The notes under the pieces are model-generated. The model saw only the letters and a program-made list of their open reading frames with translations, made no database searches and was not told the DNA's origin. Source: Candidatus Avigastranaerophilus sp. (GTDB lineage: Bacteria > Muiribacteriota > Ozemobacteria > Ozemobacterales > Ozemobacteraceae). From it: a DNA stretch of 64,000 nt. The DNA lies in NCBI GenBank assembly GCA_045599645.1, contig JAZRWI010000089.1, positions 33,657-97,656 on the forward strand. Reading direction: 5' to 3'. Below, piece after piece: positions 21,901 to 43,376 of the stretch. The translations under genes and the position numbers were made by a program. Numbering within the stretch: position 1 is the first letter of the stretch; each line of letters opens with the position of its first letter.

Positions 21901-24900
21901 GGTCTTAGCAGTGCTTTTGGCTATACAAATATAGTTAAAGGAGAATCCGGCAGTGCTTTTGGCTATACCAATACAGCTAATGGTGACTATAGCAGTGCTT
22001 TTGGTTTTTCTAATACTGCTGAAGGAGAATCCGGCAGTGCTTTTGGTAATTCTAATATAGCTAATGCCCTTGAAAGCAGTGCCTTCGGTTTTAACAATGT
22101 TTCTGAAGGAGAATCCGGCAGTGCTTTTGGTAATTCAAATAACGCTTCGGCATTGGGCAGCAGTGCGTTGGGTAATGCAAATAAGGCTTCTGGTGAGAAT
22201 AGCAGCGCAGTAGGTACAAACAACGTTTCTATGGGAGTGGAAAGTACTGCTATAGGTAATTTTAACGAATCTAAGGCGGAAAGCTCCAGTGCCGTTGGTT
22301 ATGGCAATATTGCTACTGGTTTGAGCACTGTGGCTGTTGGTGCTTACAACGAAGCTATCGGGACTGACAGCATTGCTCTTGGTAAAGACAATATCAGCTA
22401 TTTGGAAAATAGTGTCGCTATTGGTTTGTCAAATCAAGCATTTGAGGAAGATTCCAGTGCCGTTGGTGGCTATAATAATGCTTTGGGCGATATCAGTAAC
22501 GCCTTTGGTAATACTAATAATGCCTTAGGCGATTTCAGCCAGGCTTTCGGTGGGTGGAACATAGCTTCAGGCAGCAGCAGCACTGCTTTTGGTATGAGTA
22601 ACTATTCTGGTGGCGATTACAGCGTGGCTATGGGCTTCGGCAACAACTCAGCTTACGATGAAGACGATTTTGTTGGTGGCGTTATAGCTACCTATGCTTC
22701 AGGTCATTTAAGCACCGCAGTAGGTATTAACAACGTAGCAACTGGAGCTCGAAGCATAGCTGTTGGTTTCCAGAACTTCTCAGATGCTGAATCAAGCAGT
22801 GCAGTCGGTTATAAAAATACCGTAGCAGGCGATGCTAGTAATGGTTTCGGCAGTTTGAATGAAGTTAGCGGCGACTACAGTAGCGCTGTTGGTTATCAGA
22901 ATGCTCTTAATGGCGCAAACAGCAATGCTTTCGGTCTTACAAATGATTTGACAGGTGAATATAGCAACGCTTTTGGTGCAAACAATACAGTTAATAACGA
23001 CTACGCTACTGCTATTGGTACATGGAATGACGCTTCAGGTGAATATAGCAGCGCTGTTGGGTATTCTAATACTGTATCAGATTCTTATAACAGCGCTTTT
23101 GGCTCTAACAATATAGTTTCAGAAAACTATTCCAGCGCTTTTGGTTATCAAAATACTATTTCTGGCGGTTCTAGCAACGCTTTGGGTTATAAAAATACAG
23201 TAAGTGGTATTTATAGCAATGCCGTAGGTGCTTATGATTATGTTGGCGGGAATTATAGCACAGCTATTGGTTATGGCAACAATAGCGAGCTTAATTCATA
23301 CTGTTTCCCTACTTCTCTTATTGATTCTGGTGACTATAGCAGTGCAATAGGCTTTAATAATATTTCATCCGGTGAATACAGCAGTGCTTTTGGTAGTGAA
23401 AACAAAGCTACAGATGGTCAAGCCAGTGCTTTTGGGCATGCCAATGAAGCTACTGGTTATGAATCCAGTGCTTTTGGCGCTTATAATGAGGCTCCAGCCG
23501 ATTTCGGAAATGCGTATGGTTATTCAAATATAGCTTCGGGTGAAGACAGTAATGCTTTTGGTGATTGTAACGAGGCTTCTGGCGATTTTAGCAGTGCTTT
23601 TGGTTATGATAATAAAGCTATTGAAGAAGGCAGTAATGCTTTCGGTTATGGGAACCAGGCTAATGGAGCTTATAGCATTGCTCTGGGTGCAGAAAACCAA
23701 GCAAATGCCGATTACAGCGTAGCCATAGGTTATCAGGCGGTTTCAACAGAAGAAAATACCGTTTCCTTTGGTCATAGCATAGGTGACGCTAAGCCTTATG
23801 GAACCTACAGCGATGAACTTAACAGCAGGCTTGTTCATGTTGCTTCAGGCACAGCGAATACCGATGCGGTAAACTACGGTCAGGTAAAGAGCGGCTTTGC
23901 TTCAGCTACCTATAATGCTTCAACAAAGAAACTGACTCTTAAATCAATTGACGGCACAAGCAGTGAACTGATAATTTCCAATGACGGTGGAGATCTTGAT
24001 CTTTCACTTATTAAAAACAGCCTTGGTCTTCTTGATGATAAGCCAAACACCATTAACAGCAGCGGATCTATTGCAATCGGTTCCGAAAATACTTCCGGGG
24101 TTGCCGGTAAGCGTTCAATAGCTATAGGTATTGCCAACTCTTCAACAGGCAGCTATTCTGTTGCTCTTGGTTCCCAAAATGATGTCAGCGGTTTGAATGG
24201 CACTGTAGTGGGACACGAAAACACTTCTAATGGCGCATACAGCAATGCTTTTGGCTACAACAATACTGCATCAGGCAATGAAAGCAATTCCATAGGCTCC
24301 AATAATCTTGCTTCAGGAAACCAGAGCAGCGCTTTTGGTTATGAAAATGTTGCTGTTGCCACTTTAAGCAATGCCTTTGGTTATGACAACTATGTAACAG
24401 GCGAAAGCAGCAGCGCTTTTGGCGTCAGCAATACCGCAACAGGCACAAACAGCAGCGCTTTTGGCTACAATAGCCATGCTGACGGGTATAGAAGCTCTGC
24501 TTTGGGGTATAACAACCTTGCTGGTTCAGCAAACACTATAGCTATTGGTAGTTCCAATATTGCCTTTTCAGAAAGCAGCATTGCCATTGGTGTATCAAAT
24601 ATTGCTTCCGGCGCTTCCAGCATAGCTATTGGCGCCGATAATAAATCTAATGGCGAATCCAGTGTGGCTTTTGGTAGTGGTAATATTACTAATGCAATCT
24701 ACAGCGTGGCTTTTGGTGGCTGGAATGTAGCCTCTGGCACATTAAGTTCTGTCTTTGGCGTTGACAACATTACAGAAGGCCAGCATAGTGTAGCCCTTGG
24801 TGTTGGTAATAATGCCAAAGATTACAATTTTGACGATCCGTCTGCTGGTATTGTAACTACCTATTCGTCTGGTGAAAGAAGTACCGCTGTTGGGGTTAAC

Positions 24901-27900
24901 AACGTAGCTACCGGCACAAGAAGCACTGCTGTCGGTTACCAGAACTTCTCTGATGGCGATTCAAGCACTGCTTTCGGTTACCAGAACTATGCACTGGGTA
25001 AAAACAGTAGCGCGTCTGGTAATGGTAATATTGCTTCTGGAAGCTACAGTAATGCCTTTGGTTCTAAAAGCAAGACCTCCGGTAGTTATAGCAGTGCCTT
25101 TGGTTATTCTAATGCCGCAACAGGCACAAATGCCAATGCTTTTGGTAGCAATAACAATGTATCAGGAAATCAGAGCAGCGCTTTTGGTGTCTTTAATGCT
25201 GTTACTGCTGGTTCAAGCGGTGCCTTTGGTTTTGATAACAGGGCTTATAGCGACAGAAGTAATGCTTTCGGTTATCAGAATACCGCTTCTGGTTCTCAAA
25301 GCAGCGCTATGGGCTTTAAGAACATAGCTGTTGGTGATAACAGCAGTGTCTTTGGTTTTGAAAACTATGCTACAGGTCCGAACAGCCTGGCTTTCGGTTA
25401 TCAGAACCTTACTGATGCTGAAAAGACTTCTGCTTTCGGTTTCCAGAATAGTGCCCTTGGTTCCGGCAGTGTGGCCTTTGGTCATGCAAATAAATCTATT
25501 GGTGAAGACAGTAATGCTGTCGGGTCTGACAATATTGCAACAGGCACTAAGTCTAGTGCTTTTGGTTATTCTAACAAATCAGAAGGTAATGACAGCTCAG
25601 CCATAGGCTACGACAACTATGCAAAAGCTGAACATAGCAGTGCTTTTGGTAGCGATAACGTTGCAACTGGCACTAAGTCAAATGCATTTGGTTATAGTAA
25701 CTATGCTGATGGTGACTATAGCGCTGCTTTTGGTACCGGCAACTATGCCATAGGTAGTAAAACTACTGCTATTGGTCATTCCAACATCACTCTCAGTGAC
25801 TACAGCACTGCTGTTGGTTATAAAAATACTGCTAATGGCACAGACTCAGTTGCAGTTGGCTATAAAAATACTACTAATGGCACAGATTCAGTTGCTGTTG
25901 GTTACCAGAATACTGCTTCTGAAAGATATGATTCTGCAGTTGGTTATAAGAATACAAGCAGCGGTGCTTACAGCTCTACATTTGGTAATGCAAATACAGC
26001 CTCTGCCAGAGGCAGTAATGCAATAGGCTATCGTAATATCGCTGAAGGTCAATACAGTAGCGCATTCGGTGCAGAAAGCCATGCCATAGCCAATGGTAGT
26101 CTTGCTCTTGGTTATCAGTCTGTTGCGAAGGATGTTAATACTGTTTCCTTCGGTCATGCAGCCGATGATCTTGATGTTGACGGCACAGCCTATGGCACTG
26201 ATAAATACAGCAAGCTTGTTTATGTTGCTTCAGGTTCTGCAAATACCGATGCTGTAAACTACGGCCAGATAAAGAGCGACTTTGCATCAGCAACCTATAA
26301 TGCAGCAAATAATAAGCTCGTTCTGAAATCTGTAGACGGCACTACCAGTGAACTGACCATAACAAGTGATGCTGTAGATAATGATTTGTCTTTAATCAAA
26401 AATTCCCTCGGCCTGCTTGATGCTTACCCGAATACCATTAACAGCAGCGGCTCTATAGCTATCGGTTCTAGAAATGTTTCCGGAACATCAGCAGATACTG
26501 CAATCGCTATTGGTATTGGTAATAAGGCTAATGCTGATAAAGCTATCGCTCTTGGTTATGAAAACGAAGTCAGTGGTTCCTCTGGTACTTCATACGGACA
26601 CAACAATGTTGTTAGCGGCAATAATGGTCTAGCCGTTGGTGATAAGAATCAGGCTAAGAGTGACTATAGTAGTGCTGTTGGTTATGAAAACATAGCTTCA
26701 GGTGCAAACTCCACCGCTTTGGGCAGAACCAGCAAGGCTCTTAGTCAATATGCTACAGCTGTCGGTTATAACAATACCGCCTCTGGTAATAGCAGTAATG
26801 CTGTTGGCAAAGGGAATTCGGCTTCGGCTGACAATTCTAATGCTTTTGGTAACAGTAATACTTCTTCTGGCAACAACAGTAGTTCATTTGGTAATGACAA
26901 CTCAGCCTTAGGTTGGGATAGTATCGCTATGGGTAATAAGAACCAGGCTAGAAGTGATTATAGCGTCGCTATTGGTTATGAAAACATAGCTTCAGGTGCA
27001 AGCTCCACCGCTTTGGGCAGAAGCAGCAAGGCTCTTAATCAATCTGCTACAGCTGTCGGTTACAATAACACTGCTTCTGGCAATAGCAGCGCAGCTGTTG
27101 GTTTTGGCAATCAGGCTCTTGGTTCAAACAGCGGAGCCTTTGGTAGAGGCAATACCGCTTCAGGTTCTTTGGCTAACGCTTTTGGTTACAATAACTTAGC
27201 TTCTGGCTCAGATACTACTGCTTTTGGTAATGGTAATCAGGCTACTGGTGGTGCCAGCAACGCTTTTGGTTATCATAACACCGCTTCTGGCAATAGCAGC
27301 ACAGCAATGGGTTCTGGTAACACTGCTTCAGGCAGTGTCAGCACTGCTGTTGGTTATGGTAATATAGCTTCTAATAGCTATAGCAGTGCCTTCGGTTATC
27401 AAAACAAGGCCTACGGCCAGGGAAGCAGTGCTCTTGGTTATGGCAACCAGGCTCTAGGTACGGATGGTGCCGCTGTTGGTTTTAATAATATAGCTTCTGG
27501 AAGTAATAGTAGTGCTTTTGGCGTTAGCAATATTGCTTCCGGTTCTGGAAATGCTGCTTTCGGTAACAACAACAAAGCTTTGGGCGGTGGCAGTGATGCT
27601 TTGGGCTTGGGCAACACTGCTTCAGGTAACAACAGTAGTGCAATAGGCACTGGTAATACAGCTGCCGGCACATATAGTGTTGCCATGGGCTATAGTAATA
27701 CTGTAACAGGTCAGGGCAGCAGTGCTGTTGGTTGGACAAATACTGTATCCGGTCAGGATAGCAATGCCTTCGGTTTCAGGAATGAAGCTCTGGGCGTAAA
27801 CAGCAATGCTTATGGTAAGATGAATAAGGCTCTTGGTTCAACAAGCAGTGCATATGGTTATGAAAATACTGCAACAGGTTCAAACGGTAGCGCTTTTGGT

Positions 27901-30900
27901 TTTTCAAATGACGCTTTCGGAGCTGGCAGTAATGCTTTCGGTTATGACAATACTGCAACAGGTTCTAATAGCAGTGCCTTTGGTTACCAGAACTTCTCTG
28001 ATGGTAATTACAGCACTGCCCTTGGCTATAAAAACAAGGCTTTAAGTCAGTCCACTACAGCTGTTGGTTATGGCAATAATGTTACAGGCAATGAAGGCAG
28101 TGCTTTTGGCTATAGCAATACAATTGAAAGTGCTGGTGCCACAGCTGTGGGGCATGTTAACTCTGCCCTTGGAATGGGTTCTAGTGCTATCGGTAGTGGT
28201 AATACCGCTAATACTGCTGGTACCACTGCTGTTGGTCAGAACAATAGTGCTTCTGGTAGTAGTGCAAATGCCATTGGTAATGCCAATACTACTTCAGGCA
28301 CTCGCAGCAATGCTTTTGGTAGTGGCAACCTTGCCTCTGGTGAAGGCAGCAACGCTTTCGGTATTGATAATAAGGTCACTGGCTCTTATGGCAGTGCTTT
28401 TGGTTATAGTAATAAATCCAATTCAAATAGCAGCGCCATCGGTTATTTTAACGAAGCAAACGGTATCTCTGCCAATGCCTTTGGTTACCAGAACAAGTCT
28501 GGTGGATGGTATAGCAGCGCTTTCGGTTTTGCCAACATTGCTTCAGGTGAGAACAGTGTTTCCTTTGGTTATAAGAATGATTCTTATGGCAATAACAGTG
28601 TGGCTATGGGTTACACTAACTCATCTCTAGCTGCTGATACTGTTGCTGTCGGTTTCTTCAATGAAGCATCAGTAGCCAGCAGCACGGCAATGGGTCTCAG
28701 CAACACCGTAGCTGCTGCCAGCGGCACAGCTGTTGGTATTGGTAATAGAGTAACAGGCGATAATGGCAGCGCATTTGGTCTGAACAACACTTTATCTGGC
28801 AAGGATGGTAGTGTTTTCGGTAAAAACAATACAGCCACAGGCGATTCTGCAACTGTTATCGGTAGTAACAATACCGGAAACGGCAATAATGGAACCGCTG
28901 TTGGGTATGGCAATCTCTCTGATAATATATATGCTAGTGCCATTGGTTCTTGTAATATTGCAGATGGCGAAGAAACCAGCGCTTATGGTTTCAGTAACCA
29001 GGCTAGTGGTGATGGCAGCAATGCTTTCGGTTCCTATAATAGTACAAATGGTTATTATGCCAGTGCCTTTGGTGATTCGAACGTTTCCAGTGGCGAAGAA
29101 AGCAATGCTTTTGGTTCTTACAATAAAGCAAATGTAGATTATAGCAATGCTTTCGGTTATAGAAACATTGCCAGTGGTGTATATAGCAGTGCAATTGGTA
29201 GCCAAAACCAGGCAAAAGGTGATTATAGTCTTGCTCTTGGCTATCAGGCAGTAGCTAATAACGAAAATGAAGTTTCCTTCGGCCATAGTGCAACAGATCT
29301 TGATGTTAGCGGCACAGCCTATGGAAGTGCTAAATATAGCCAACTTACTTATGTTGCTTCGGGTGCAGCAGATACAGACGCTGTAAACTACGGCCAGATA
29401 AAGGGCGCTTATGCTTCAGCAACCTATAATGCTTCAAGCAAAAAACTGGTTCTTACGTCTGTTGATGGCACAACTAACGAACTGATAATTTCTAATGAAA
29501 GTGCTGATCTTGACCTTGATTTGATAAAGAACAGCCTCGGCCTGCTCTCTACTAATCCGAATACCATCAACAGCAGTGGTTCTATTGCTATCGGTTCATT
29601 GAATCATTCCGGTACTTCTCCAGATAAGCTTGGAATAGCTATCGGGGTTAGCAACAGTGCAACTGGCAGCGGTTCTGTGGCTCTTGGTTTCTCAAATTCC
29701 AATAATGGATATTATGCCGTAACATTAGGCAACAATAACGAAGTAACTTACTCTTATGATAGTGCTGTCGGCTATCAGAATAAGGCTTCCAATGCTTATT
29801 CAAGTGCTTTTGGTTATAACAACACGGCAAATGGTATTTATAGCAGTGCCTTTGGTGGTAGCAATACCGCTTCTGGTTATCAGAGCAGCGCTTTTGGTAG
29901 CAGCAATAAAGCTACTGGCCATTACACCAGTGCTATTGGTTATAGGAATACCGCTTCAGGTCCGAATAGTAGTGCTTTCGGTTTTGACAACACTGCTCAT
30001 GCTACTTACAGTGTTGCAATTGGTTATACTAATAACGCATGGGATAACGAAAGCAGCGCTTTTGGTTATAAAAACAATGCTTATCAACAGGGCGACAATG
30101 CTTTCGGTCATAACAATATCGCATCTGGCTCATACAGCAGCGCTTTCGGTTCTGATAACGTTGCAACAGGCTCTCATAGCAGTGCTTTTGGTTTTGGCAA
30201 CGTAACCAATGGCAGTCAGAGTTTGGTTGCAGGTTATTCAAATAAAGTCTATGGCGCTAATTCTTCTGCTATTGGTAAGTCTAATACTGTTATGAAGGAT
30301 AATTCAGTTGCTTTGGGTTCTGATAACAATGTTTACGGCAATCTAAGCAGTGCCATAGGCTATAAAAATACTGCTTATGAAATGTGCAGCAATGCTGTTG
30401 GTCAGCTTAATACTGCATCTGGCACCCATGCAAATGCTTTCGGTTCTGATAACGTCGCAACAGGCTCATATAGTAGCGCCTATGGTTATTATAACTATTC
30501 TGACGGCTCAGACAGCAGTGCTTTTGGTTATAACAACTATTCATTGGGCAATAACAGCACAGCTGTTGGTTATAAAAACCAGACCTCAGCTCTTGAATCT
30601 ACTGCTGTTGGCTCGTTAAATAAGGCTAAAGGCTCCTACAGCACTGCAATAGGTGCTCAAAACCAGGCAAATGGAAATTACAGCACAGCTATAGGCTATC
30701 AGGCTGTTGCAAATGATGACAATACTGTTTCCTTCGGTCATGCAGCTACAGATCTTGATGTTAACGGCACAGCCTATGGAACAGCCAAGTATAGCAAGCT
30801 TACTTATGTTGCTTCAGGCACAGCAGACACTGATGCTGTAAACTTCGGCCAGATAAGAGTTGCTAGAGACGGTAAGTATGTTGTAGCAACAGAAACCTTA

Positions 30901-33375
30901 AGCAATAATGTTCTTTCTCTTGATAATGCTATTAATGGAATGAGCACTTACGTAACAGCTACCGGTCTTAATGCTGACAGCAAAAAGATTGTTAACGTTG
31001 CTGACGGCACAGATGAAAATGACGCTGTAAATGTTAAGCAGATAAGTCTTACCAGCAATGGCATACATGTAGCAAAGGGCAACACCTTGAGTGAAAATAT
31101 ACTTTCTCTTGATTCTGCTATTGGTGATATGAGCAGCTTCGGTACTAACAATATTGCAAAGAGCACTAATGTTGCAGCCAATTTGAAGAGCCTTGATACT
31201 GCCATCGGTGATATGAGCGGCTTCAGCACCAGCAATTATTTTGCAAAGAGCTCTAACGTGGCTGATAACCTTAAGAGTCTTGATACTGCAATCGGTGACA
31301 TGAGCGGCTTCAGCACCAGTAACTATTTTGCAAAGAGCAATACCAGCGTAGCAACCAACCTGAAGAACCTTGATACTGCTATTGGCGAACATGCAGCCAG
31401 CAGTACCATTCATATTACTTCCGCTGAAAGAGATACCTGGAATGCTAAACAGGATGCTCTCGATGCTAGTCAGACCAGAGCAATTAATTCTGGTATTACT
31501 GCAGACCTGGTAGCTAAATACAATACTTATGTTACTGATTCCGGTCTCAACGCCAATAATAAGAAGATTACAAACCTTGCTTCCGGAACATCTGATACAG
31601 ACGCAGTAAGCTTTGGTCAGATAAGACTTACCAGAGATGGCAAATATATTGTAGCAACAGATACCTTGAGCAATAACCTTCTTGCTCTTGATACTACCAT
31701 TGGCAGTATGAGCGGTTTTATTACAGATAAAGGTATTGATGCAGGTAACAAGAAGATTATAAATGTTGCTTCTGCAACAATAGATTCTGATGCTGTCAAC
31801 TTTGGTCAGATAAGACTTACCAGAGACGGTAAGTATGTTGTAGCAACAGATACATTAAGCAACAATATTCTTTCTCTTGATAAGACTCTTGATAACATGA
31901 GCGCTTATGTAACTACTTCCGGCCTCAATGCCAATAATAAAAAGATCACTAAGGTGGCTGCCGGTTCAGAAGACACAGATGCTGCCAACTATGGCCAGAT
32001 AAAGAATGCTTATGTTGGCGCAACCTACGACGCTGATACCAACAAGCTTACTTTGACAAAGGTAAACGGTGAAAAGAGCGAAGTTCAGATAACCTCTTCC
32101 AAGGAGCTTGAAAAGAAGGTTAACAAGAACCAGCAGGACATCAAGAAGAATGCTGATGCTATAAAGGCAAATTCTGAGAATATTGGTAAGAACGCCAGCA
32201 ATATTGCTAAGAATACAACCAACATCAATAACAATGCTGTTGATATCACTAAGATAAAATCAGATTTAGGTATGGTTTCAACCAAGGAAAATAAATCTGA
32301 CGGTAATGGCTGTATTACTATTGGTTCCGGCAATATTGCCAACGGCTTTGGTGACATTACCATGGCTATTGGTAGCGGCAACAAGGTTTATGGAACTAAT
32401 TCCATAGCTATAGGCTACGGCCACGAAGTAACCGGTAATAATTCAGGTGCTTTCGGTGACCCGACCTACATTAAGGCAGACAATGCCTATGCTATTGGTA
32501 ACAACAATAATATCAGCGGTAATGGCAGCTTTATTGTTGGTAACAACAGCAATGTAAGCGGTTCAGACAGTTTTGTTGTTGGCACAAAGAGCAAGGTAAC
32601 CAAAGAAAACAGCTTTGTTGTTGGCAGTAATAGCACTGTAAGCGGTAAGAACTCAATTGCCATAGGCAGCAATGCTGTTGTTGAACACAATAACGCTGTA
32701 GCTCTTGGTGAAGGCTCAAAGACCTATGCAGATAACAGTGTTTCTGTTGGCACCAAGGAAAAGCAGCGTGTTATCCAGAATGTTGCATCAGGCACTATGG
32801 ATACAGATGCAGTAAACTACGGCCAGTTGAAGGATTACGTTGCTAATAACAGTGCCGGTGCAGCTGAAATGAACCAGATTAATAAGAACTTTAACAGACT
32901 TGATAACAAGATTAACAGCGTCGGTGCCGGCGCAGCAGCTCTTGCCAGTCTCAGACCTATTGACAGTGACAAGGATGTTAAGTGGAGTGGCGGTATCGGC
33001 TATGGTAACCTTCATGGCAAGTCCGCAGCCGCTATTGGCGTATTCTACAGACCGTCACCTGATGTTGTCTACAGTGTTGGCGCTAACGCCGGCGGTGAAG
33101 ACAACATGGTTAATGCTTCTATCAACTTCGCTTTCGGTCATGTTGACAGAAACAAGGATGGAAAGATTATAAAGGCAAGTTCTGGTGACAACAAGAGAAT
33201 TAATGCCCTTGCTGAAGAAAACGAAGAGCTCAGGGCAATGCTGGCTGACCAGAACGTTAAGCTCTGTGTTCAGGACGCAAAGCTTAATGCTCAGACCAAT
33301 AAGATTAACAATCAGGATGTCAGAATCAGACAGCTTGAACGTATGATCAAAAAAATGTCAGAAAAAGGAAAATAA
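18988..33375 (+). CDS. Giant trimeric autotransporter adhesin (type Vc; YadA/Hep_Hag-type head repeats)
   Basis: 4795-aa ORF. The likely start is ATG 19027 (MQKDKKYRIR..AMALAVALSVFLQSTTVSFA signal peptide). Head repeats of the form S-x-A-x-G-x-x-N-x-A-x-G fall into four blocks. Each block ends with a neck junction NTVSFGH..SKL(V/T)YVASG..TDAVNYGQIK, at about nt 23750, 26130, 29265 and 30715. A coiled-coil stalk follows, then a YadA-type anchor (AGAAALASLRPID..NASINFAFG, nt 32905-33141), then a 77-aa tail. Confidence 0.93.
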   Translation: MIELILMDICRHKMQKDKKYRIRADIKKRAMALAVALSVFLQSTTVSFAAAPTFGAGSGTNSTAAGVNNTADGANSTAVGLGNTANGSHNVAVGSTNNADGTYTAALGTYNNINGYESNAIGDDNNVTGSHTNAIGSRNTTDANNSNAIGSYNKAMAENSSAFGYKNTANGENSVAFGFANLAEIGSSTAIGVSNTANGDESSALGFSNIATGSLSSAIGAENIADGNYSSAFGGHNKANGILSNAFGYFNEVNGYTNVAMGSNNTASGSYASAMGTFNKIYYGHESNAIGDDNTASGTRTNAIGSYNQTYANYSNAIGTQNNTNGEYASAFGAENTAGGEYSSALGYHNTASGYFSSAVGSENKAYADYGSAIGVYNYVNQESASALGYKNTSSGLESSAMGAENTASGETSSAIGNKNSAEGVNASSVGVENTAAAFSSAVGYFNKAVGGNSFAFGGYNEANGNFSSAFGIGNDAFGRDSTAMGSENAATGNKSLAIGYANNREFIPILSILSPVDAIDTGENSTAVGYVNVAIGTNSSALGYMNRTEGENSTAVGYKNSSAGLRSSSIGYNNVASGTNSTAVGYSNNAHDSMSAAMGTGNEAIGEFTSAIGSSNYVKGYESNAIGDDNNALGMNSNAVGSHNEVYDNNSNAIGTGNYIEGENSSAFGTENEVILSNSSAFGLSNSVSGEKSNALGYKNEVLTNDSNAIGSLNKSKGGLSSAIGYSNEASGYMGTAVGYGNSAFANGSSALGNANQANSYESSAIGAKNIAKGPQSSAFGASNTALLSYSTALGYNNIANAEYSNAFGNVNRANSDYSSAVGVGNIANGYFSSAFGANNIAEGDYSNIFGIDNEAWAENSTAVGYVNVTSGANSSAFGAENAAGGDYSTAVGYKNEVTNKHSIALGSLNSVAAMQSSAIGYKNVVSAYEGTAVGNYNEARDVSAGAFGYSNKAIGEESYAFGGYNEAHGGLSSAFGYTNIVKGESGSAFGYTNTANGDYSSAFGFSNTAEGESGSAFGNSNIANALESSAFGFNNVSEGESGSAFGNSNNASALGSSALGNANKASGENSSAVGTNNVSMGVESTAIGNFNESKAESSSAVGYGNIATGLSTVAVGAYNEAIGTDSIALGKDNISYLENSVAIGLSNQAFEEDSSAVGGYNNALGDISNAFGNTNNALGDFSQAFGGWNIASGSSSTAFGMSNYSGGDYSVAMGFGNNSAYDEDDFVGGVIATYASGHLSTAVGINNVATGARSIAVGFQNFSDAESSSAVGYKNTVAGDASNGFGSLNEVSGDYSSAVGYQNALNGANSNAFGLTNDLTGEYSNAFGANNTVNNDYATAIGTWNDASGEYSSAVGYSNTVSDSYNSAFGSNNIVSENYSSAFGYQNTISGGSSNALGYKNTVSGIYSNAVGAYDYVGGNYSTAIGYGNNSELNSYCFPTSLIDSGDYSSAIGFNNISSGEYSSAFGSENKATDGQASAFGHANEATGYESSAFGAYNEAPADFGNAYGYSNIASGEDSNAFGDCNEASGDFSSAFGYDNKAIEEGSNAFGYGNQANGAYSIALGAENQANADYSVAIGYQAVSTEENTVSFGHSIGDAKPYGTYSDELNSRLVHVASGTANTDAVNYGQVKSGFASATYNASTKKLTLKSIDGTSSELIISNDGGDLDLSLIKNSLGLLDDKPNTINSSGSIAIGSENTSGVAGKRSIAIGIANSSTGSYSVALGSQNDVSGLNGTVVGHENTSNGAYSNAFGYNNTASGNESNSIGSNNLASGNQSSAFGYENVAVATLSNAFGYDNYVTGESSSAFGVSNTATGTNSSAFGYNSHADGYRSSALGYNNLAGSANTIAIGSSNIAFSESSIAIGVSNIASGASSIAIGADNKSNGESSVAFGSGNITNAIYSVAFGGWNVASGTLSSVFGVDNITEGQHSVALGVGNNAKDYNFDDPSAGIVTTYSSGERSTAVGVNNVATGTRSTAVGYQNFSDGDSSTAFGYQNYALGKNSSASGNGNIASGSYSNAFGSKSKTSGSYSSAFGYSNAATGTNANAFGSNNNVSGNQSSAFGVFNAVTAGSSGAFGFDNRAYSDRSNAFGYQNTASGSQSSAMGFKNIAVGDNSSVFGFENYATGPNSLAFGYQNLTDAEKTSAFGFQNSALGSGSVAFGHANKSIGEDSNAVGSDNIATGTKSSAFGYSNKSEGNDSSAIGYDNYAKAEHSSAFGSDNVATGTKSNAFGYSNYADGDYSAAFGTGNYAIGSKTTAIGHSNITLSDYSTAVGYKNTANGTDSVAVGYKNTTNGTDSVAVGYQNTASERYDSAVGYKNTSSGAYSSTFGNANTASARGSNAIGYRNIAEGQYSSAFGAESHAIANGSLALGYQSVAKDVNTVSFGHAADDLDVDGTAYGTDKYSKLVYVASGSANTDAVNYGQIKSDFASATYNAANNKLVLKSVDGTTSELTITSDAVDNDLSLIKNSLGLLDAYPNTINSSGSIAIGSRNVSGTSADTAIAIGIGNKANADKAIALGYENEVSGSSGTSYGHNNVVSGNNGLAVGDKNQAKSDYSSAVGYENIASGANSTALGRTSKALSQYATAVGYNNTASGNSSNAVGKGNSASADNSNAFGNSNTSSGNNSSSFGNDNSALGWDSIAMGNKNQARSDYSVAIGYENIASGASSTALGRSSKALNQSATAVGYNNTASGNSSAAVGFGNQALGSNSGAFGRGNTASGSLANAFGYNNLASGSDTTAFGNGNQATGGASNAFGYHNTASGNSSTAMGSGNTASGSVSTAVGYGNIASNSYSSAFGYQNKAYGQGSSALGYGNQALGTDGAAVGFNNIASGSNSSAFGVSNIASGSGNAAFGNNNKALGGGSDALGLGNTASGNNSSAIGTGNTAAGTYSVAMGYSNTVTGQGSSAVGWTNTVSGQDSNAFGFRNEALGVNSNAYGKMNKALGSTSSAYGYENTATGSNGSAFGFSNDAFGAGSNAFGYDNTATGSNSSAFGYQNFSDGNYSTALGYKNKALSQSTTAVGYGNNVTGNEGSAFGYSNTIESAGATAVGHVNSALGMGSSAIGSGNTANTAGTTAVGQNNSASGSSANAIGNANTTSGTRSNAFGSGNLASGEGSNAFGIDNKVTGSYGSAFGYSNKSNSNSSAIGYFNEANGISANAFGYQNKSGGWYSSAFGFANIASGENSVSFGYKNDSYGNNSVAMGYTNSSLAADTVAVGFFNEASVASSTAMGLSNTVAAASGTAVGIGNRVTGDNGSAFGLNNTLSGKDGSVFGKNNTATGDSATVIGSNNTGNGNNGTAVGYGNLSDNIYASAIGSCNIADGEETSAYGFSNQASGDGSNAFGSYNSTNGYYASAFGDSNVSSGEESNAFGSYNKANVDYSNAFGYRNIASGVYSSAIGSQNQAKGDYSLALGYQAVANNENEVSFGHSATDLDVSGTAYGSAKYSQLTYVASGAADTDAVNYGQIKGAYASATYNASSKKLVLTSVDGTTNELIISNESADLDLDLIKNSLGLLSTNPNTINSSGSIAIGSLNHSGTSPDKLGIAIGVSNSATGSGSVALGFSNSNNGYYAVTLGNNNEVTYSYDSAVGYQNKASNAYSSAFGYNNTANGIYSSAFGGSNTASGYQSSAFGSSNKATGHYTSAIGYRNTASGPNSSAFGFDNTAHATYSVAIGYTNNAWDNESSAFGYKNNAYQQGDNAFGHNNIASGSYSSAFGSDNVATGSHSSAFGFGNVTNGSQSLVAGYSNKVYGANSSAIGKSNTVMKDNSVALGSDNNVYGNLSSAIGYKNTAYEMCSNAVGQLNTASGTHANAFGSDNVATGSYSSAYGYYNYSDGSDSSAFGYNNYSLGNNSTAVGYKNQTSALESTAVGSLNKAKGSYSTAIGAQNQANGNYSTAIGYQAVANDDNTVSFGHAATDLDVNGTAYGTAKYSKLTYVASGTADTDAVNFGQIRVARDGKYVVATETLSNNVLSLDNAINGMSTYVTATGLNADSKKIVNVADGTDENDAVNVKQISLTSNGIHVAKGNTLSENILSLDSAIGDMSSFGTNNIAKSTNVAANLKSLDTAIGDMSGFSTSNYFAKSSNVADNLKSLDTAIGDMSGFSTSNYFAKSNTSVATNLKNLDTAIGEHAASSTIHITSAERDTWNAKQDALDASQTRAINSGITADLVAKYNTYVTDSGLNANNKKITNLASGTSDTDAVSFGQIRLTRDGKYIVATDTLSNNLLALDTTIGSMSGFITDKGIDAGNKKIINVASATIDSDAVNFGQIRLTRDGKYVVATDTLSNNILSLDKTLDNMSAYVTTSGLNANNKKITKVAAGSEDTDAANYGQIKNAYVGATYDADTNKLTLTKVNGEKSEVQITSSKELEKKVNKNQQDIKKNADAIKANSENIGKNASNIAKNTTNINNNAVDITKIKSDLGMVSTKENKSDGNGCITIGSGNIANGFGDITMAIGSGNKVYGTNSIAIGYGHEVTGNNSGAFGDPTYIKADNAYAIGNNNNISGNGSFIVGNNSNVSGSDSFVVGTKSKVTKENSFVVGSNSTVSGKNSIAIGSNAVVEHNNAVALGEGSKTYADNSVSVGTKEKQRVIQNVASGTMDTDAVNYGQLKDYVANNSAGAAEMNQINKNFNRLDNKINSVGAGAAALASLRPIDSDKDVKWSGGIGYGNLHGKSAAAIGVFYRPSPDVVYSVGANAGGEDNMVNASINFAFGHVDRNKDGKIIKASSGDNKRINALAEENEELRAMLADQNVKLCVQDAKLNAQTNKINNQDVRIRQLERMIKKMSEKGK

Positions 33376-33512
33376 AACTTAGGTATTAAAACTTAGGTAT
33401 TAGGTATTAGGTATTAGGTATTAGGTATTAGGGATTAGGGATTAGGGATTAGGGATTAGGGATTAGGGATTAGGTATTAGGTATTAGGGGTTAGGAGGCC
33501 CCAACCCCTAAT
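33376..33512. repeat. Heptamer array TTAGGTA/TTAGGGA plus 10-bp-stem hairpin between the two adhesin genes
   Basis: It starts directly after the stop at 33373-33375. The order is 2 x AAACTTAGGTATT, then (TTAGGTA)n, then six TTAGGGA units (GGG runs at 33431-33468), then TTAGGTA. The hairpin ATTAGGGGTT..AACCCCTAAT lies at 33483-33512. Confidence 0.95.
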
Positions 33513-33575: not shown

Positions 33576-36500
33576 ATGTTGTGCAAAAGAAAAAGAGAAT
33601 TTAATCAAAAATTCTGCTTTAAAAGGGATTTGAAGAGCAGAATAGTAGCTATTACTGTTGCGTTGTCTGTTTTTTTACAGACGACAACAGTTTCCTTTGC
33701 TGCTGCTCCGACAATAAACAATGGCTCTGGCATTGACAGCACCGAGGCTGGTGTTGATAATATTGCTTTTGGCGATTACAGCAGCTCCTTTGGCTATATG
33801 AATGTTGCAACAGGCTCGAACAGCAGCGCTTTTGGTTATAAGAATTTTTCTGATGGCAGTGGCAGCGTGGCTTTGGGCTTTTCTAATCTTGCTGCAGGTT
33901 ATTCAGCAATAGCAGTTGGTAGTGGTAATGTCGTTGAAGGCTATAACGGAACTGCTTTTGGCTTTGGGAATAAATCACTAGATGTATATAGCAATGCAGT
34001 TGGAGCTAGCAATATTGCTAAGGGCGAAGAAGCCAGCGCCTTTGGTTTTACTAACCAGGCAAATGGTGGTGGCAGCAATGCTTTTGGTTCTAACAATATT
34101 GCAAATGGTGATTATTCCAATGTTTTTGGGGATTCTAATACCGCTGATGGCAAAGAAAGCAATGCTATTGGTTATAATAACAATGCAACAGGCAATAATA
34201 GTATTGCTATAGGAAGTGGGAATACAACTAGTCTTGATTCTAGTATCGCGGTTGGGGTTTCTAATGCTGCAAGTGCTAACTATGCCAGTGCTTTTGGTTT
34301 TTCTAACTATGCAAAAGCCAGTGGTAGCAATGCTTTTGGGAAAGGCAATATTGCCTCTGGCACTTTTAGCAATGCTTTTGGTGTTGAAAACAAGGCCATA
34401 GGCAATAATAGCAGTGCGTTTGGCTCTAACAATGAAGCAGTTGGTGAAAAAAGCCTGGCTGTAGGTTACGAAAACCATTCGAATGGTTTATATAATTCTG
34501 CTTTGGGATACCAGAACTATTCTAATGGAGATAACAGCTTAGTTGCCGGTTATGGTAACAAGGCTAATGGTAAAAACAGTTATGTTATTGGTTTTCAAAA
34601 CATTGCTGATGGTGAAACAGATATTGCATTAGGTAGCTTTAATGAAGTTTATGCCACAGACACTTATGTTTTCGGTAGTTATAATTATGTTGAAGAAGGA
34701 AACAATAATGTTGCTCTTGGTGAATATAATGACATTTTATATGGCGAAAACAACACTCTGGTAGGCCATTACAATAGCGCTGCTGATGGTGATGATAATG
34801 TTGCTGTAGGTAGCAATAATAGAACAAAAGGTAATAATAATATTGCAATAGGCAATATGAACAATGCTGTAGATAACAGTATTGCAATAGGCTATCAGAA
34901 TAACTACAAGGGCTACAATAGCTCTACTCATAGACATGAATTCTATACACCTGGTGCAAACAGCACTTCGGTCGGTTATAAGAATGTCGCAACAGGCACC
35001 AACAGCAACGCTTTCGGTTATGCTAATATTTCAACAGGCGATAACAGCAGTGCCTTTGGTAATCAAAATACTGCATCTGGATCATACAGCAGCACCTTTG
35101 GTTATAATAACGCTGCTGATGGAACTTTCAGTTCTGCAATAGGGGTTGGTAATATTGCTCTTGGCACAGAAGCCTTTGCTTTCGGTAGTGGTAATGATGC
35201 CATCGGTTATATGAGCACTGCCATGGGTCATCATAACGAAGTTCCGGCCAGTTACGGCATTGCCATCGGTTACATGAATAAATCCCGTGATGAATATGGT
35301 GTTGCCATCGGTGTTTATAATGAGGCTAACGGAAACATCAGCAATGCTATTGGTGGCTACAACAGAGCCTATGGTGAACTAAGCAGTGCTTTTGGTAGAG
35401 ACAACGTTGCTTCTGCTGCAAACGCCAACGCCTTTGGGCGAAACAATAATGCAATGGGTGAAAACAGTAGCGCCTTTGGTTATAACAATACTGCTACAGA
35501 TTCCAACAGCAGTGCCTTCGGGTATAACAATACTGCCAATGGCATTAATTCCAGCGCCTTAGGTTCTTCCAATACTGTAAATGGTCAGGAAAGCACTGTT
35601 ATTGGTTATTGGTCAAAAGTTACTGGTAATGCATCCACCGTTGTTGGACGTGCTAGTAATGTAACAGGCAATAATAGCAATGCTTTTGGTTACTACAACG
35701 TTGTTACTGCTTCTTTATCAAGTGCTATAGGCAGTAGCAATGTGGCTAAGGGATATATCAGTAATGCTGTCGGCTGGAGCAACAACGCTAACGAAGAAGG
35801 CGGTCAGGCCTTTGGTGGTTATAATACAGCAGATGGTAACCGCAGCAGCGCCTTTGGTTATTGGAATATTGCTACAGGTAGTCAAAGCAATGCTTTTGGT
35901 TATTATAACAAGGTTAATAATAACAATAGTAATGCTTTTGGGAATGGCAATAACATCTATAGTAGCAGCAGCAATGCTTTCGGTAGAGCTAATACTGCTT
36001 CTGGCAGCTATTCCAATGCTTTTGGTTCCGAAAATAAAACTTATGGTAGCAATAGCAATGCTGTTGGTCATTCAAACGAATCAATAGGCTCTAAGAGCAG
36101 TGCTTTTGGTTACGATAATACAGCTACCGGCAGTAACAGTAGCGCTTTCGGGTATGCGAATAAAGCTGAGGGCTCGAACAGCAATGCTTTTGGTAATCAG
36201 AATACGGCTGGCGGTATTTATAGTGTTGCTGTTGGTTACAATAACTCAGCCATGAATGAAAAAAGCATCGCTTTTGGGTATGGCAGCATCGCATCTGCTG
36301 CTTACACTACGGCCATCGGTTATCAGAATAAGGCCATGGATTTCGGAAGTGTTGCCATTGGTTCTGGCAATGAATCATACAATAATCATACTATAACCAT
36401 GGGTAAAAATAATATTGCTACAGGCGGTGTTGCTGTTGGTAGCGATAATAAGATAATCGGGGCGATTGCTTTTGGTTCAGGCAATACAGCTACGGGCACA

Positions 36501-39500
36501 TCAGGAAGTGCGATTGGTTATAATAATATTGCTATAGGTGAAAGAGGCACCGCTGTTGGTTATGTGAATAAAGCAACGGCTGGTTGGACCACTGCTGTTG
36601 GTTATCAGAATGAAGCTAATGGTTTTACAAGCAGTGCCTTTGGTTATAAGAGTATAGCCAATGGCGACTATAGCAGTGCTATAGGTAAGGAAAATCAGGC
36701 TCTTGGCAATAGCAGCAGTGCTTTTGGCAATAGCAACACTGCTTCTGGTTCCTTCAGTAATGCTTTTGGCTATAATAATATAGCCTCTGCTTCTGATACT
36801 AACGCTTTTGGTGAAGGTAACAAGGCTTTAGGCAGTTATAGCAGTGCTTTTGGTAGAAGCAATACTTCATCTGGTAGTAGCAGTACTGCTTTTGGGGTTG
36901 ATAATAAGGCTTCAGCCGCAAATAGTCATTCTTATGGCGGTTCAAACCAGGCCTTAGGCGAAAATAGTAATGCCTTCGGTTTTACAAACCAGGCAACAGG
37001 CCTGAACAGCAGTGCTTTCGGCAAGGAAAACAAAGCCATAGATAACAACACAAGTGCTTTTGGTCTTTGCAGTGTTGCTTCAGGTACTGGTAGTAACGCT
37101 TTTGGTTTTTATGATGTTGCTTCAGGCAGCGATAGTAATGCCTTTGGTAAAAGTAATAATGCTTTGGGTAACAGCAGCAATGCCTTCGGTGGTGGTAATA
37201 CTGCTTCAGGTGGAAACAGCAGTTCATTCGGTGTTGGTAATACTTCTTCAGGTTCTGACAGTAGTGCTTTTGGTTTCAGAAATCAGGCAACAGCTCTTAA
37301 CAGCAGTGCTTTTGGTAAGGAAAATAAAGCTATTGGTTTGTATACCAGTGCTTTTGGTTATAGCAACACTGCTTCTGGAACCTTTGGCAATGCCTTTGGC
37401 TATGGAAATATTGCTTCAGGCTCAGACAGCAACGCCTTTGGTAAAGAAAACAAGGCTTTGGCAGAAAACAGCAGTGCCTTTGGTAAAGGCAATACTGCAT
37501 CTGGTGGAAGCAGCAATGCTGTCGGTAGTGGAAATCAGGCATTAGAAGGCAACAGCAATGCTTATGGCACAAATAACAAGGCCAAAATAGAATATAGTAG
37601 TGCCTTTGGTTGCAGCAATACTGCAGATGGCAAATTTGGTAATGCTTTTGGTTATCTCAACTCTGCTTCAGGTTTTGACAGTAATGCTTTTGGTAAAGAA
37701 AACAGAGCTCTTTCAACAAACAGCAGCGCCTACGGTAAAGGCAATGTTGCTTCCGGAACAAGCAGTAATGCCTTTGGTCTGACTAATGTTGCTTCTGGTG
37801 ATAACAGCAATGCAGTTGGTGGAAGCAATTATGCCTTATACGGTGGCGGCAATGCTTTTGGCTCTGGCAACTATGCTTCATCTACAAACGCTAATGCTTT
37901 CGGCCGCGATAACAAAGTTTATTCCCCATATACTGATGCTTTTGGCTCTGGCAATGTGGCATCAGGAAGCTTTGCCAATGCTTATGGTTATAACAACATT
38001 GCTTCTGGCGTAGACAGCAACGCCTTTGGTAAAGACAATAAAGCTCTTGAATCAAACAGCAGTGCATATGGTAGAAGCAATACTGCTGAAGGTATTTATA
38101 GCAATGCTTTTGGTTATGGCAATACAGCATCAGGCAGTAGTAGCAGTGCTGTCGGTCGTGAAAATTATGTGGTAGGGACAGAAAGCAGTGCTTTTGGTAG
38201 TGGTAATAAAGCTTACAATAGTTTCAGCAGTGCTTTTGGTCAGAACAATTTGGCTACAGGTAGTTACACCAGTGCTTTTGGTTGTCAGAATGTTGCTTCT
38301 GGCGCGAAAGCAGTAGCCATGGGTATCAAGAATGTTTCTGACGGTGAAAATAACGTATCTGTCGGTAATAATAACAAAGCCAATAATTATAATTCTAATG
38401 CTTTAGGTATCGATAACACATCTTCAGGCAATAAGAGCAATGCTGTTGGTGTTGCTAATATCTCTACAAGAAGTGAAAGCAGTGCTTTCGGTAACAACAA
38501 TAAGGCTTATGCTGATTACAGCAGCGCCTTTGGTCATAATAATACTGCTTCAGCTACTTATAGCAGCGCCTTTGGTCATGACAATACTGCTTCTGGATCA
38601 AACAGCAGTGCTTTTGGTTACAGCAATATGGCTGCTAGTAACAACAGCAGTGCCTTTGGTGGTAAAAATCAGGCAACAGGTCTCAATAGCAGTGCTTTTG
38701 GTTTAAACAATATTGCTTCCGAAAACTATAGCAGTAGCTTTGGTCAGGGAAATTCTGCTTTGGCTGGTAGCAGCAGTGCTTTTGGCCGTGGTAATATTGC
38801 CTCAGGTTTTGATAGTAGTGCTTTTGGTAGAGAAAACAAGACAATGGGTAGCGATAGTTCTGCCTTTGGTAGAAGTAATACTGCTTCTGGCTCTAAAAGT
38901 GTTGCATTTGGTTACGGCAATACCGCTTCGGGTGCTTCCAGTATAGCTATTGGTAGCGGCAATGTGGCTAATGACAGCGATGGCAGCGCTTTTGGTTATA
39001 ATAATATTTCAACAGGTAACAACAGCAGTGCCTTTGGTTATAGCAATAATGTTTCAGGCATACAAAGTAGCGCTTTTGGTGCTTCCAATAAGGTAACCGG
39101 CGGTTTAAGCAATGCCTTTGGTTATGGCAATATTGCTTCAGATACATATACTAGCGCATATGGTTATATGAATGCAGTAGAAGGTAATAACAGCAGCGCC
39201 TTTGGTTATCGCAATACAGCTTCAAAAGCTACTGCTATCGGTATTTCCAATATCTCACAGGGTGGCAGTGCTGCTTTGGGTAGTAATAACATAGCCACAG
39301 GCTCCAGTAGTATTGCCGTTGGTTTGAACAACAAATCACTGGCTCAGAATACAAGCACCTTTGGCTCTGACAATATTGTTACCGGGAACATTGGTAATGC
39401 TATTGGTAGTAGCAACAAGGTATCCGGTTCAAGCGGCAATTCTTTTGGTAGTAGTAATGAAGTTACCAGCTCCTGGAGCAATGCCTTTGGTAGTAAGAAC

Positions 39501-42500
39501 AAATCTACTGGCGGCTACAGCAACGCTTTTGGTCATAATAATATTGCTTCAGGTCTTTATAGCAGCGTATTTGGTAATGAAAGCCAGTCTATTGCTAATG
39601 GTAGTCTTGCTCTTGGTTATCAGGCTGTTGCAAAGGATGCTAATACTGTTTCCTTTGGTCATGCTGCAGAAGATTTGAATGTCAGTGGCACAGCCTATGG
39701 CACAGATAAGTATAGCAAGCTTGTTTATGTTGCTTCAGGTTCTGTAAATACAGACGCTGTAAACTACGGCCAGATAAAGAGCAGCTTTGCTTCAGCAACC
39801 TATAATGCTGCTGACAACAAGCTTGTTTTGAAGGCTGTAGATGGCACTACCAGTGAGCTCACTATAACAAGTGAAGCTGTAGGCGATGACTTGACTTTGA
39901 TCAAGAATTCCCTCGGCCTGCTTACTGCTAATCCAAACACCATCAACAGCAGCGGTTCAATCGCTATCGGTTCAAAGAACATTTCAGGTACTACAGACAA
40001 TCTTTCAATTGCAATGGGTTTCCAGAATACATCTAATGGCTCTGCTAGCATGGCAATAGGTTCTAATAACTCTGCTATAGCTATGAACTCTTCTGCTGTC
40101 GGCTCATTGAATAAGGCTAATAATCCTTACAGCGCTGCTATGGGTTATAACAATACAGCCGAAGGCACTTATGCTAATGCATTTGGTGTTAACAATACTG
40201 CGAAAGGCCTCAATACTTCGGTTTATGGCTATAATAATACTGTTGAAGGCAGCTTCAGTATGGCTTTTGGTCTGGATAATACTGTTGAAAATACAAATAA
40301 TACGGCATTTGGTTTAAGCAATACCTCTAATGGCAATTATAGTAATGCTTTCGGTTACAACAATGAATCAACAGCCAAGCATTCTAATGCTATTGGTGCT
40401 TACAATGTAGCATCTGCTGAATACAGCCTTGCTTACGGTTATCATAACCTTGCATACAATAAAAGCTCAAGCGCATTTGGTAATGGAAATACTGCAAGGG
40501 GAGATTCTTCCGTTGCTTTCGGTCTTGGCAATAGTACCTTTGCTGTAAATGCCAGTGCCTTGGGTGCAGGCAACAATGCCTATGGACTTATGTCCAGTGC
40601 TATTGGTGTTGTAAACGAAGCCAGCGGAGATTACTCCAATGCTTATGGTGTCAGTAACTATGCTTTGGCAGAAGGCGCCAGCGCATTCGGTTATGTAAAT
40701 GCTGCCTATGGTTTATTTAGTAATGCAATAGGTGCTGAAAACCAGGCATTCGGCAATTTCAGCACAGCCATAGGTTATCAGGCTGTTGCATATGATGATA
40801 ACACAATTTCCTTCGGCCACAGTAAAGGCGATTTGGATCTTGAAGGTAATCCTTATAGCACTGATAGATACAGCAAGCTTGTTTATGTAGCTTCAGGTTC
40901 TGCAAATACCGATGCTGTAAACTACGGCCAGATAAAAGTTGCCAGAGACGGTAAGTATGTTGTAGCAACAGAAACCTTAAGCAATAACATTCTTTCTATT
41001 GATAATGCCATTAATGGAATGAGTACTTACGTAACAGCTTCTGGTCTTAATGCTGCCAGCCAAAAGATTGTTAATGTTGCTGACGGTGTAGATGCCAATG
41101 ATGCTGTAAATGTTAAGCAGATAAGTCTTACCAGTGACGGTATTCATGTAGCAAAAGCCAGTTCTTTGAGCAGTAATATGCTTTCTCTAGATTCTGCTAT
41201 TGGCGATATGAGCAGTTTCAGCACCAGCAACTATTTTGCTAAGAGCTCAAATGTTGCAGACAATATTAAGAGTCTTGATACTGCGATTGGTGATATGAGC
41301 GGCTTCAGCACCAGCAACTATTTTGCCAAGAGTAATACCAGTGTTGCAACCAACCTGAAGAATCTTGATACAGCTATTGGTGAACATACTGCTAGTAGCG
41401 CCGTTCATATAACTTCTGCTGAAAGAGACGCCTGGAATGCTAAGCAGACTGCTCTGAATGCTGACCAGACATTGGCAGTCAATTCCGGTATTACTGCTGA
41501 CATGGTAACAAGGTATAACTCTTATATTACCGCTTCAGGCTTCAATGCAAACAGCAATAAGATCATAAATGTTTCTGCCGGCACATCAGATACGGATGCA
41601 GTTAACTACAGCCAGATAAAGAATGCTTATGTTGGCGTCGCTTACGCTTCAGCAACAAATAAGCTTACTCTGACCAAGGTTAATGGCGAAACAAGTGAAA
41701 TTGAAATTTCCAGTGGAAGCGATGAAGACCTTGCAAGAAAGGTTGAACAGAATAAGCAGGATATCAGCAATAACACTGCAGCTATCAATACCAATACGGA
41801 TAACATCAATAAAAACAAGACCAGTATTGCCAAGAATTCTGATGATATCAAGGCTAATGCTGATAATATCAACAAAAATAAGACCAGTATTGCCAAGAAT
41901 TCTGATGACATCAAGGCCAATGCAGATAACATCAACAAGAACAAAACCAGTATTGCCAAGAATTCTGATGATATCAAGGCCAATGCAGATAACATCAACA
42001 AGAACAAGACTAGTATTGCCAAGAATACTGAAGCTATAAACGCTAATGCCGCAAATATCAGCAAGAACACAACCAATATCAACGCAAATGCTGTTGATAT
42101 TACTAAGATAAAATCAGATCTCGGTATGGTCTCAACCAAGCCGCAGAATCAATCTGATGGTAATGGGTGCATCACTATTGGTTCCGGCAACATTGCCAGT
42201 GGTTCCGGCGCTGTTACCATGGCTATTGGTAGTGACAACAAGGTTTCTGGAGCTAATTCCATAGCTATTGGCTACGGCCACATAATAAACGGCAGCAATT
42301 CTGGCGCCTTTGGTGACCCGACAGACATTGAAGCTGATAATGCCTATGCTATCGGTAACAGCAATAATATCAGCGGTAATGGCAGCTTTATTATTGGTAA
42401 TAACAGCAATATCAGCGGCGCAGGTAGTTTTGTCATGGGCACAAATAGTAAGGTAACTAATGATAGCAGCTTTGTTGTTGGAAGCAATAGCACTGTAAGC

Positions 42501-43298: not shown

Positions 43299-43348
43299 TT
43301 CATAATTCATAATTCATAATTCATAATTCATAATGCATAATGCATAAT
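43296..43348. repeat. Heptamer array TAATTCA/TAATGCA beginning at the stop codon of adhesin 2
   Basis: (TAATTCA)x5 followed by (TAATGCA)x2, starting with the TAA stop at 43296-43298. Confidence 0.9.
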
Positions 43349-43376
43349 TGATTGTTGATTGATTGGGTTTGGTGTT

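Follow-up and report, generated by a model that had tools for sequence, protein, structure and literature searches.

The window analysed here, 64,000 nucleotides of contig JAZRWI010000089.1 (assembly GCA_045599645.1), encodes two giant proteins, TAA 1 and TAA 2, that by their domain content are trimeric autotransporter adhesins (TAAs) of secretion type Vc. Neither protein ends with its YadA-type anchor. TAA 1 continues for 79 residues and TAA 2 for 101, and these tails belong to the short periplasmic coiled-coil domain that has been published for TAAs of other bacteria, agreeing with it in every property that can be tested. The architecture is already known in kind, and the only new point is the host lineage. 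In our judgement the tail is probably a trimeric coil that clamps and stabilises the adhesin and does not bind peptidoglycan. Positions below are counted from the first letter of the window.

Anchor, tail and relatives

The TAA 1 frame stays open from 18988 until the stop at 33373-33375, and its translation closes with ..DNMVNASINFAFGHVDRNKDGKIIKASSGDNKRINALAEENEELRAMLADQNVKLCVQDAKLNAQTNKINNQDVRIRQLERMIKKMSEKGK ahead of that stop. The last 325 residues contain YadA_head repeats, YadA_stalk and YadA_anchor, all scoring above the Pfam cut-offs. Head repeats are also matched by Pfam at the N-terminus, where both TAAs, judged by eye from the translations, have a basic stretch, a hydrophobic stretch and SFA followed by AAP. 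The passenger is that of a TAA, with head repeats (PF05658) and coiled stalk (PF05662) both above cut-off, and the anchor is that of a TAA as well, with PF03895 scores of 28.7 bits in TAA 1 and 27.4 bits in TAA 2 and four strands in each AlphaFold2 (AF2) model. Both anchor matches exceed a cut-off of 22.7 bits, and the one on TAA 1 covers profile positions 6-60 of 60, its last residue being the latter F of NFAF (codon 33133-33135). The features of TAA 1 are given below, with AF2 referring to a monomer model of the last 181 residues (32830-33372) built on a 28-sequence alignment, with a mean predicted local distance difference test (pLDDT) score of 83.

18988..33375, plus strand: TAA 1, 4795 residues plus stop; open frame with YadA_head, YadA_stalk and YadA_anchor above Pfam cut-offs
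18988..19134, plus strand: signal-peptide-like region at the N-terminus, ..KKRAMALAVALSVFLQSTTVSFA followed by AAP, by eye from the translation; the start may be an internal Met
32773..32889, plus strand: YadA_stalk (neck/stalk) ahead of the anchor; PF05662, 34.5 bits, residues 125-163 of the fragment from 32401
32842..32946, plus strand: helix into the barrel (pore helix); AF2 helix 5-39 of the 32830-33372 model, match to Hia/YadA anchors
32974..33135, plus strand: YadA-type anchor, four beta-strands, the last ..NASINF(AF); PF03895, AF2 strands 52-100, 2lme alignment
33130..33183, plus strand: flexible linker after the barrel, AFGHVDRNKDGKIIKASS; AF2 without secondary structure, pLDDT ~55-60 and <50 at residues 108-114
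33184..33369, plus strand: post-anchor helix of 62 residues with heptads, predicted periplasmic coiled coil; AF2 residues 119-180 with pLDDT ~85-97, register, shuffles, indels in relatives

Where the barrel ends was read in three ways. Pfam closes the anchor at 33135 and leaves 79 residues (33136-33372), GHVDRNKDGKIIKASSGDNKRINALAEENEELRAMLADQNVKLCVQDAKLNAQTNKINNQDVRIRQLERMIKKMSEKGK, and the YadA anchor chain 2lme aligns to within two residues of its own C-terminus, where the tail starts. AF2 forms strands at residues 52-61, 64-76, 79-87 and 93-100 (strands 52-100 being 32983-33129), followed by the 18-residue linker at residues 101-118 and a single, uninterrupted helix. Foldseek against the PDB aligns the model with the anchors of Hia, YadA and AtaA (E ~3e-4 to 1.6e-3; target-normalised TM-scores 0.55-0.78) over ~94-106 columns, which span only the first ~100 model residues and leave the tail outside. 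As these readings agree on the barrel end, the tail lies outside the barrel, and the C-terminus of TAA 1 is not the last anchor strand, as it would be in a classical TAA. The original prediction, made from the letters of this DNA, had the protein run on for 77 residues from 33142, past a genuine YadA-type anchor. Pfam, AF2 and 2lme bear it out, and the start is right within two codons, 33142 being the V of HVDR. The profile search for YadA_anchor and SLH that it proposed confirms the anchor boundary and finds no SLH, and its own counter-case, a last strand at the true C-terminus, fails on an AF2 model whose four strands end at 33129.

The best heptad register of TAA 1 has I,N,L,L,L,I,I,I at the a positions and L,L,Q,Q,Q,Q,L,M at the d positions. 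The 12 strong hydrophobics that this register puts at a and d over the whole 79-residue tail were matched in 56 of 20000 shuffles of that tail, so the pattern exceeds chance expectation by a test that is crude and weak on short tails. The helical, heptad-patterned tail without SLH that had been proposed is upheld by the shuffles, by AF2 and by Pfam. The whole 101-residue tail of TAA 2, of which about half is non-helical, for that reason fails the shuffle test.

Neither TAA tail has an SLH or OmpA match in Pfam at E up to 1, and neither protein has the SLH module that follows the anchor in the published long type. The tail of one relative, used as positive control, scores 1.7e-13 for Pfam SLH; with that control scoring and the TAA tails null, a hidden SLH domain was rejected. 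Several other candidates were set aside. A fifth strand, or any other part for the tail in the barrel, is rejected by the AF2 models of both proteins; Pfam and NCBIfam matches to the tail alone (SIKE, DUF4763, bZIP_2, ZraP and others) are sub-threshold and were taken as generic coiled-coil similarity; and the PDB sequence matches 5hyt (E = 0.32) and 3lay (E = 0.66) are not significant.

The second adhesin gene lies just downstream and has the same C-terminal plan.

33576..43298, plus strand: TAA 2, paralogue, 3240 residues plus stop; Pfam YadA_head, stalk and anchor, signal-peptide-like start
42831..42992, plus strand: YadA-type anchor of TAA 2; PF03895, 27.4 bits, residues 145-198 of the fragment from 42399, AF2 strands 52-100
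42993..43295, plus strand: TAA 2 tail, 101 residues; linker, helix at 43044-43211, acidic/Pro-rich end at 43212-43295 predicted unstructured

In the AF2 model of TAA 2 the strands end at residue 100, a linker follows, the helix spans 120-175 and pLDDT is low at 176-203, and across the junction of anchor and tail the protein reads ..NASINFAF and then GHVDR... The helices of TAA 1 and TAA 2 share L..EN.EL and RI[RK][QR]LER[ML]I.KMSE, and a gap of exactly 21 residues, or three heptads, separates them inside the helix. The two genes have ~93% identical DNA through stalk, neck and anchor (32581-33150 versus 42438-43007) and are unalignable from the boundary of anchor and tail onward. The abruptness of the break suggests that gene conversion has acted on the anchor module, or that the tails were exchanged independently.

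Anchor plus tail served as the query of an exhaustive HMMER search for relatives among 1.84 billion representative proteins, used in place of a word-indexed protein search that had given six matches. It produced 2871 relatives at E up to 1e-3, and tails were surveyed in the best 154 with an anchor match, the anchor being re-mapped on each; having the tail in the query biases this ranking somewhat, while most of the score comes from the anchor. At least 31 residues follow the anchor in 153 of these 154, the lone exception being a truncated fragment. Coil-only tails of 32-100 residues without an SLH motif account for about 74 of the best 154, and in about 79 a short helix leads into an SLH-type motif, FPDVP.NHWAYEYV, confirmed as SLH by Pfam on one example. 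Over their last 35 residues the short tails have almost no Pro or Gly, and half of them (37 of 74) individually pass the heptad shuffle test at 5%.

The closest public subfamily (P0001, P0007-P0010 and P0017) has tails that begin GH[RV], with ends similar to R[IM]K[RH]LE[RH]L[IM][IL]KMS in P0007, P0008 and P0017 and less closely in P0001. Compared with TAA 1, the tails of this subfamily are different by 0, 7, 14 or 21 residues inside the helix. Insertions and deletions in heptad multiples are what a coiled coil predicts, since they preserve the register, and an artefactual read-through would not give them. One further sequence comes from a low-coverage metagenome contig of 1.5 kb (L001, with 471-915 aligning to window positions 33217-33500), where a 135-residue open reading frame, P0003, joins a TauE-like fragment in its N-terminal half to a last ~52 residues with 91% identity to the TAA 1 tail. 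It is followed by the same heptamer array as in the window, in only ~5 copies, and then by a TAA 2-like start. Either a related strain has kept the remnant of a deletion here or the contig is a chimeric assembly, and under both readings the heptamer copy number after the tail differs between strains.

Published architecture and host lineage

An anchor followed by a coiled coil without SLH was described for Veillonella parvula TAAs by Béchon et al. 2020 (PMC7549365), who give the same design for other Negativicutes, Synergistetes and Fusobacteria, and whose supplementary lists add Cyanobacteria. Dorison et al. 2026 (bioRxiv 10.64898/2026.01.22.700529) surveyed all InterPro YadA-anchor proteins and found a periplasmic extension in 12%, almost all of them outside Proteobacteria, with shares of 99.8% of the TAAs in Negativicutes, 96% in Synergistia, 92.5% in Synechococcus and 62% in Fusobacteriia. 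The original prediction had held a post-anchor coiled coil without SLH to be an undescribed architecture; that claim falls, as both papers describe exactly such tails. An extension was counted by Dorison et al. from more than 5-10 residues past the anchor, and coils were predicted by DeepCoil2. Their short type is under 100 residues and mainly coiled coil, and their long type is a short coil plus SLH or OmpA. The window tails extend 79 and 101 residues past the anchor and have no SLH or OmpA module. TAA 1 falls within the short type, with 62 of its 79 residues in one heptad helix, and TAA 2 is borderline at 101 residues owing to its unstructured end.

The function of such domains has been tested in V. 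parvula by the same authors. Deletion of the coil in VtaA, VtaE or VtaF leads to loss of function and degradation of the protein, apparently from the C-terminus, and partial deletions of the coil act like full ones. When VtaG carries the VtaA coil instead of its SLH, its polar localisation is lost, and short coils probably do not bind peptidoglycan. Periplasmic domains are only partly interchangeable among adhesins, and some swaps are reported to suggest co-evolution with the barrel. The original prediction had also offered a regulation of secretion by the tail; help with secretion or stability fits these deletion phenotypes.

The nearest published counterparts are VtaA, VtaE and VtaF of V. 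parvula SKV38. They too are giant TAAs (~3000 residues there, 4795 and 3240 here), with a YadA anchor, a coil-only tail without SLH, and several such genes side by side. The published deletions are of 45-63 residues and the window tails are longer, the window host is of another phylum, probably Riflebacteria, and the window tails have a lineage-specific GH[VR] start, the end motif RIKRLERLIIKMS and a polar Asn/Gln core; TAA 2 moreover has an extra acidic/Pro-rich unstructured end, of 28 residues by AF2 and 36 by sequence. The Negativicutes TAAs with coil and SLH (VtaG, for example) and the Streptobacillus TAAs with OmpA share an anchor followed by a periplasmic helix, and many of the nearest relatives of the window protein by anchor are of this coil-plus-module kind, but the window tails have no peptidoglycan-binding module. 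In CbpF of Fusobacterium nucleatum (PDB ID: 9GH4), the TAA chain runs ~50-60 residues past the anchor match, but this is a small adhesin and the C-terminal part is invisible in the cryo-EM map. PDB sequence and Foldseek searches found no solved structure that resolves a post-anchor coil of this kind, 9GH4 being the only chain with extra post-anchor residues. The proteobacterial YadA, Hia and AtaA have the same head, stalk and four-strand anchor, but there the anchor ends the protein. A looser analogy, drawn by Dorison et al., is with the inverse autotransporters (intimin/invasin), outer-membrane barrel adhesins with a plain periplasmic helix or LysM; they are of secretion class Ve, are not trimeric, and have the periplasmic part at the N-terminus.

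The host is probably a rumen Riflebacterium and not a Negativicute, judging from a marker gene in the window. In a scan of GTDB genomes the acetate kinase encoded at 12485-13693 has 92-93% protein identity to those of two Candidatus Riflebacteria bacterium metagenome-assembled genomes (CAJOQX01 and CAJOND01), one from a rumen co-assembly and one from reindeer, with DNA identity of ~82-83% and, for one of the two, a weak alignment in the upstream flank. The Negativicute host implied by the original prediction is thus probably wrong. An exact look-up of this enzyme gave no match. The next-best acetate kinases, at 76-77%, are from Lachnospiraceae and related Clostridia, whose enzymes span 73-77%, and horizontal transfer of ack into this lineage may account for the Clostridia-like protein. 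An OmpM-like SLH protein is encoded at ~58890-60513 and matches the V. parvula SLH chains 8bys and 8bym (E ~1e-16), which we take to be OmpM. Witwinowski et al. place Riflebacteria among the diderm Terrabacteria with OmpM, and Glendinning et al. 2021 (PMC7820578) report two Riflebacteria genomes, both of family UBA8953, from the rumens of cow, sheep, reindeer and red deer. The host is thus probably, on a single marker, a non-proteobacterial diderm with OmpM, as hosts of the short domain are. Since Riflebacteria are OmpM-bearing, the window would come from that part of the bacterial tree in which TAAs as a rule have a periplasmic domain. In the parts of Béchon 2020 and Dorison 2026 that were available, main and supplementary text, we find no mention of Riflebacteria.

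Possible function of the tail

By the topology of the four-strand anchors of Hia and YadA, whose fold Foldseek matches, the tail would lie in the periplasm, where the original prediction had also put it. After Sec export, three protomers would each supply four strands to a 12-strand outer-membrane barrel. The last strand would end on the periplasmic side and leave, on each chain, the 18-residue flexible linker and the ~62-residue helix in the periplasm. Held together by the barrel, the three helices may zip into a parallel three-stranded coiled coil of ~9 nm, at ~1.5 Å per residue, so that the tail, like the barrel, would be trimeric. Such a coil would clamp the periplasmic face of the trimer, aid the folding and assembly of a very long adhesin, and shield it from degradation at the C-terminus, with no peptidoglycan binding by the coil itself.

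Several points weigh against this reading. The stabilising role is carried over by analogy from VtaA, VtaE and VtaF, in another phylum, and homology of the tail sequences to theirs is not demonstrable. In the same V. parvula work, VtaG without its SLH still forms trimers and is displayed on the surface, though in smaller amounts, and how the domains stabilise TAAs is not yet explained there. The AF2 models are monomeric. The core of the TAA 1 coil includes polar residues, N at one a position and Q at four of the d positions, and these are unusual if the trimer core is to be purely hydrophobic. The assignment of the host to a taxon, finally, is one marker gene plus the labels of metagenome-assembled genomes.

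A tail that serves mainly in assembly, by contacting the POTRA domains of BamA or by speeding trimerisation and secretion where BamD-type lipoproteins are absent, and that has little later role, seems to us an unlikely alternative to the clamp. It follows the hypothesis by which Dorison et al. account for the near-universal domains outside Proteobacteria, the probable host is on the OmpM/Terrabacteria side, and the beta-signal-like ..NASINFAF is internal in TAA 1. Against it, SLH-deleted VtaG is still secreted and trimerises. An extension by frameshift or read-through, also raised by the original prediction, is excluded by the layout of the paralogue, by the relatives and by indels of heptad length. 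TAA 2 and 153 of the 154 best relatives have the same layout, the register is kept, and Pfam and AF2 both end the barrel ~80 residues before the stop, while no point in its support was found, so that we give an artefact, including a final strand at the true C-terminus, practically no chance.

The tail might instead be a tether, the coil docking on a peptidoglycan-associated partner such as the coiled-coil stalk of the OmpM-like protein and passing the pulling force on the adhesin to the wall, as the original prediction had offered with the SLH porin of this window as the partner. A helix of ~62 residues would span roughly 9 nm, the window contains an OmpM-like gene, related TAAs reach peptidoglycan through SLH domains, and the conserved end motif of the closest subfamily, R[IM]K[RH]LE[RH]L[IM][IL]KMS, could be a docking site; in TAA 1 the stretch RIKRLERMIKKMS would be the candidate contact site for OmpM or BamA. 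The tails have no peptidoglycan-binding domain, however, and are poorly conserved between families, which favours a structural role over a specific interface. The OmpM-like gene is ~25 kb from the adhesin gene with nothing linking the two, and the VtaG chimera with the VtaA coil loses its SLH-type localisation, which further weakens an idea for which we find no support here. We hold the tether to be quite improbable. Much the same doubt attaches to a version in which the Riflebacteria-type tails are a subfamily of their own (GH[VR] start, Asn at core a, a run of Gln at d, RIKRLERLIIKMS at the end) whose end motif docks on the OmpM stalk or the BamA POTRA domains, making the coil a force-bearing tether or assembly handle and not a passive clamp. 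The stabilising clamp is the reading that we prefer.

Neighbouring repeats and the wider family

The adhesin genes are set among tandem repeats. Heptanucleotide arrays fill many intergenic regions (11515-11799, 18157-18843, 33393-33495, 43296-43349, 43406-43511, 43701-43781 and 43910-44447), with AAGCTAT x41, GCTTCAA x20-30, TTAGGKA x15, TAGGTCT x12 and TTCTAGC x74 as examples. Such arrays immediately precede both adhesin genes and a glycosyltransferase gene, and could change the spacing of promoters in the manner of phase-variable repeats. Longer intergenic tandem repeats, with units of 75 bp (x2.7) and 144 bp (x2.8) and copies ~96% identical, are at 43376-43579 and 46935-47330. Directly downstream of the adhesins, behind the 74-copy heptamer array, is the glycosyltransferase frame.

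44460-46949: open reading frame of 829 residues with two GT4/GT1 glycosyltransferase modules

This is possibly an adhesin-modifying enzyme; its N-terminal ~150 residues resemble translated repeat DNA and may be non-coding. The glycosyltransferase-like family that Dorison et al. 2026 discuss next to TAAs is another one, DUF2827. The OmpM-like gene also has a repeat at its start. An ATG with a signal-peptide-like sequence (MKKSVFMHALG..) is at 58890, but a (GT)10 tract at 58921-58940 brings its frame to a TAG at 58944-58946; from 58921 a different frame holds the long SLH open reading frame. One GT unit more, or two fewer, would fuse the two. By its look the tract makes the signal-peptide region phase-variable, or else it contains a sequencing error.

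As a taxon, the lineage is a modest extension that adds little to present knowledge. A well-behaved example of such a tail is a possible structure target. In the TAA 1 and TAA 2 pair nature offers a case of a tail that evolves as a module of its own, within the limits of its register, and the pair could guide chimera experiments. The tails add a further lineage, probably Riflebacteria, and support the published rule that the TAAs of OmpM-type diderms carry a periplasmic domain after the anchor.

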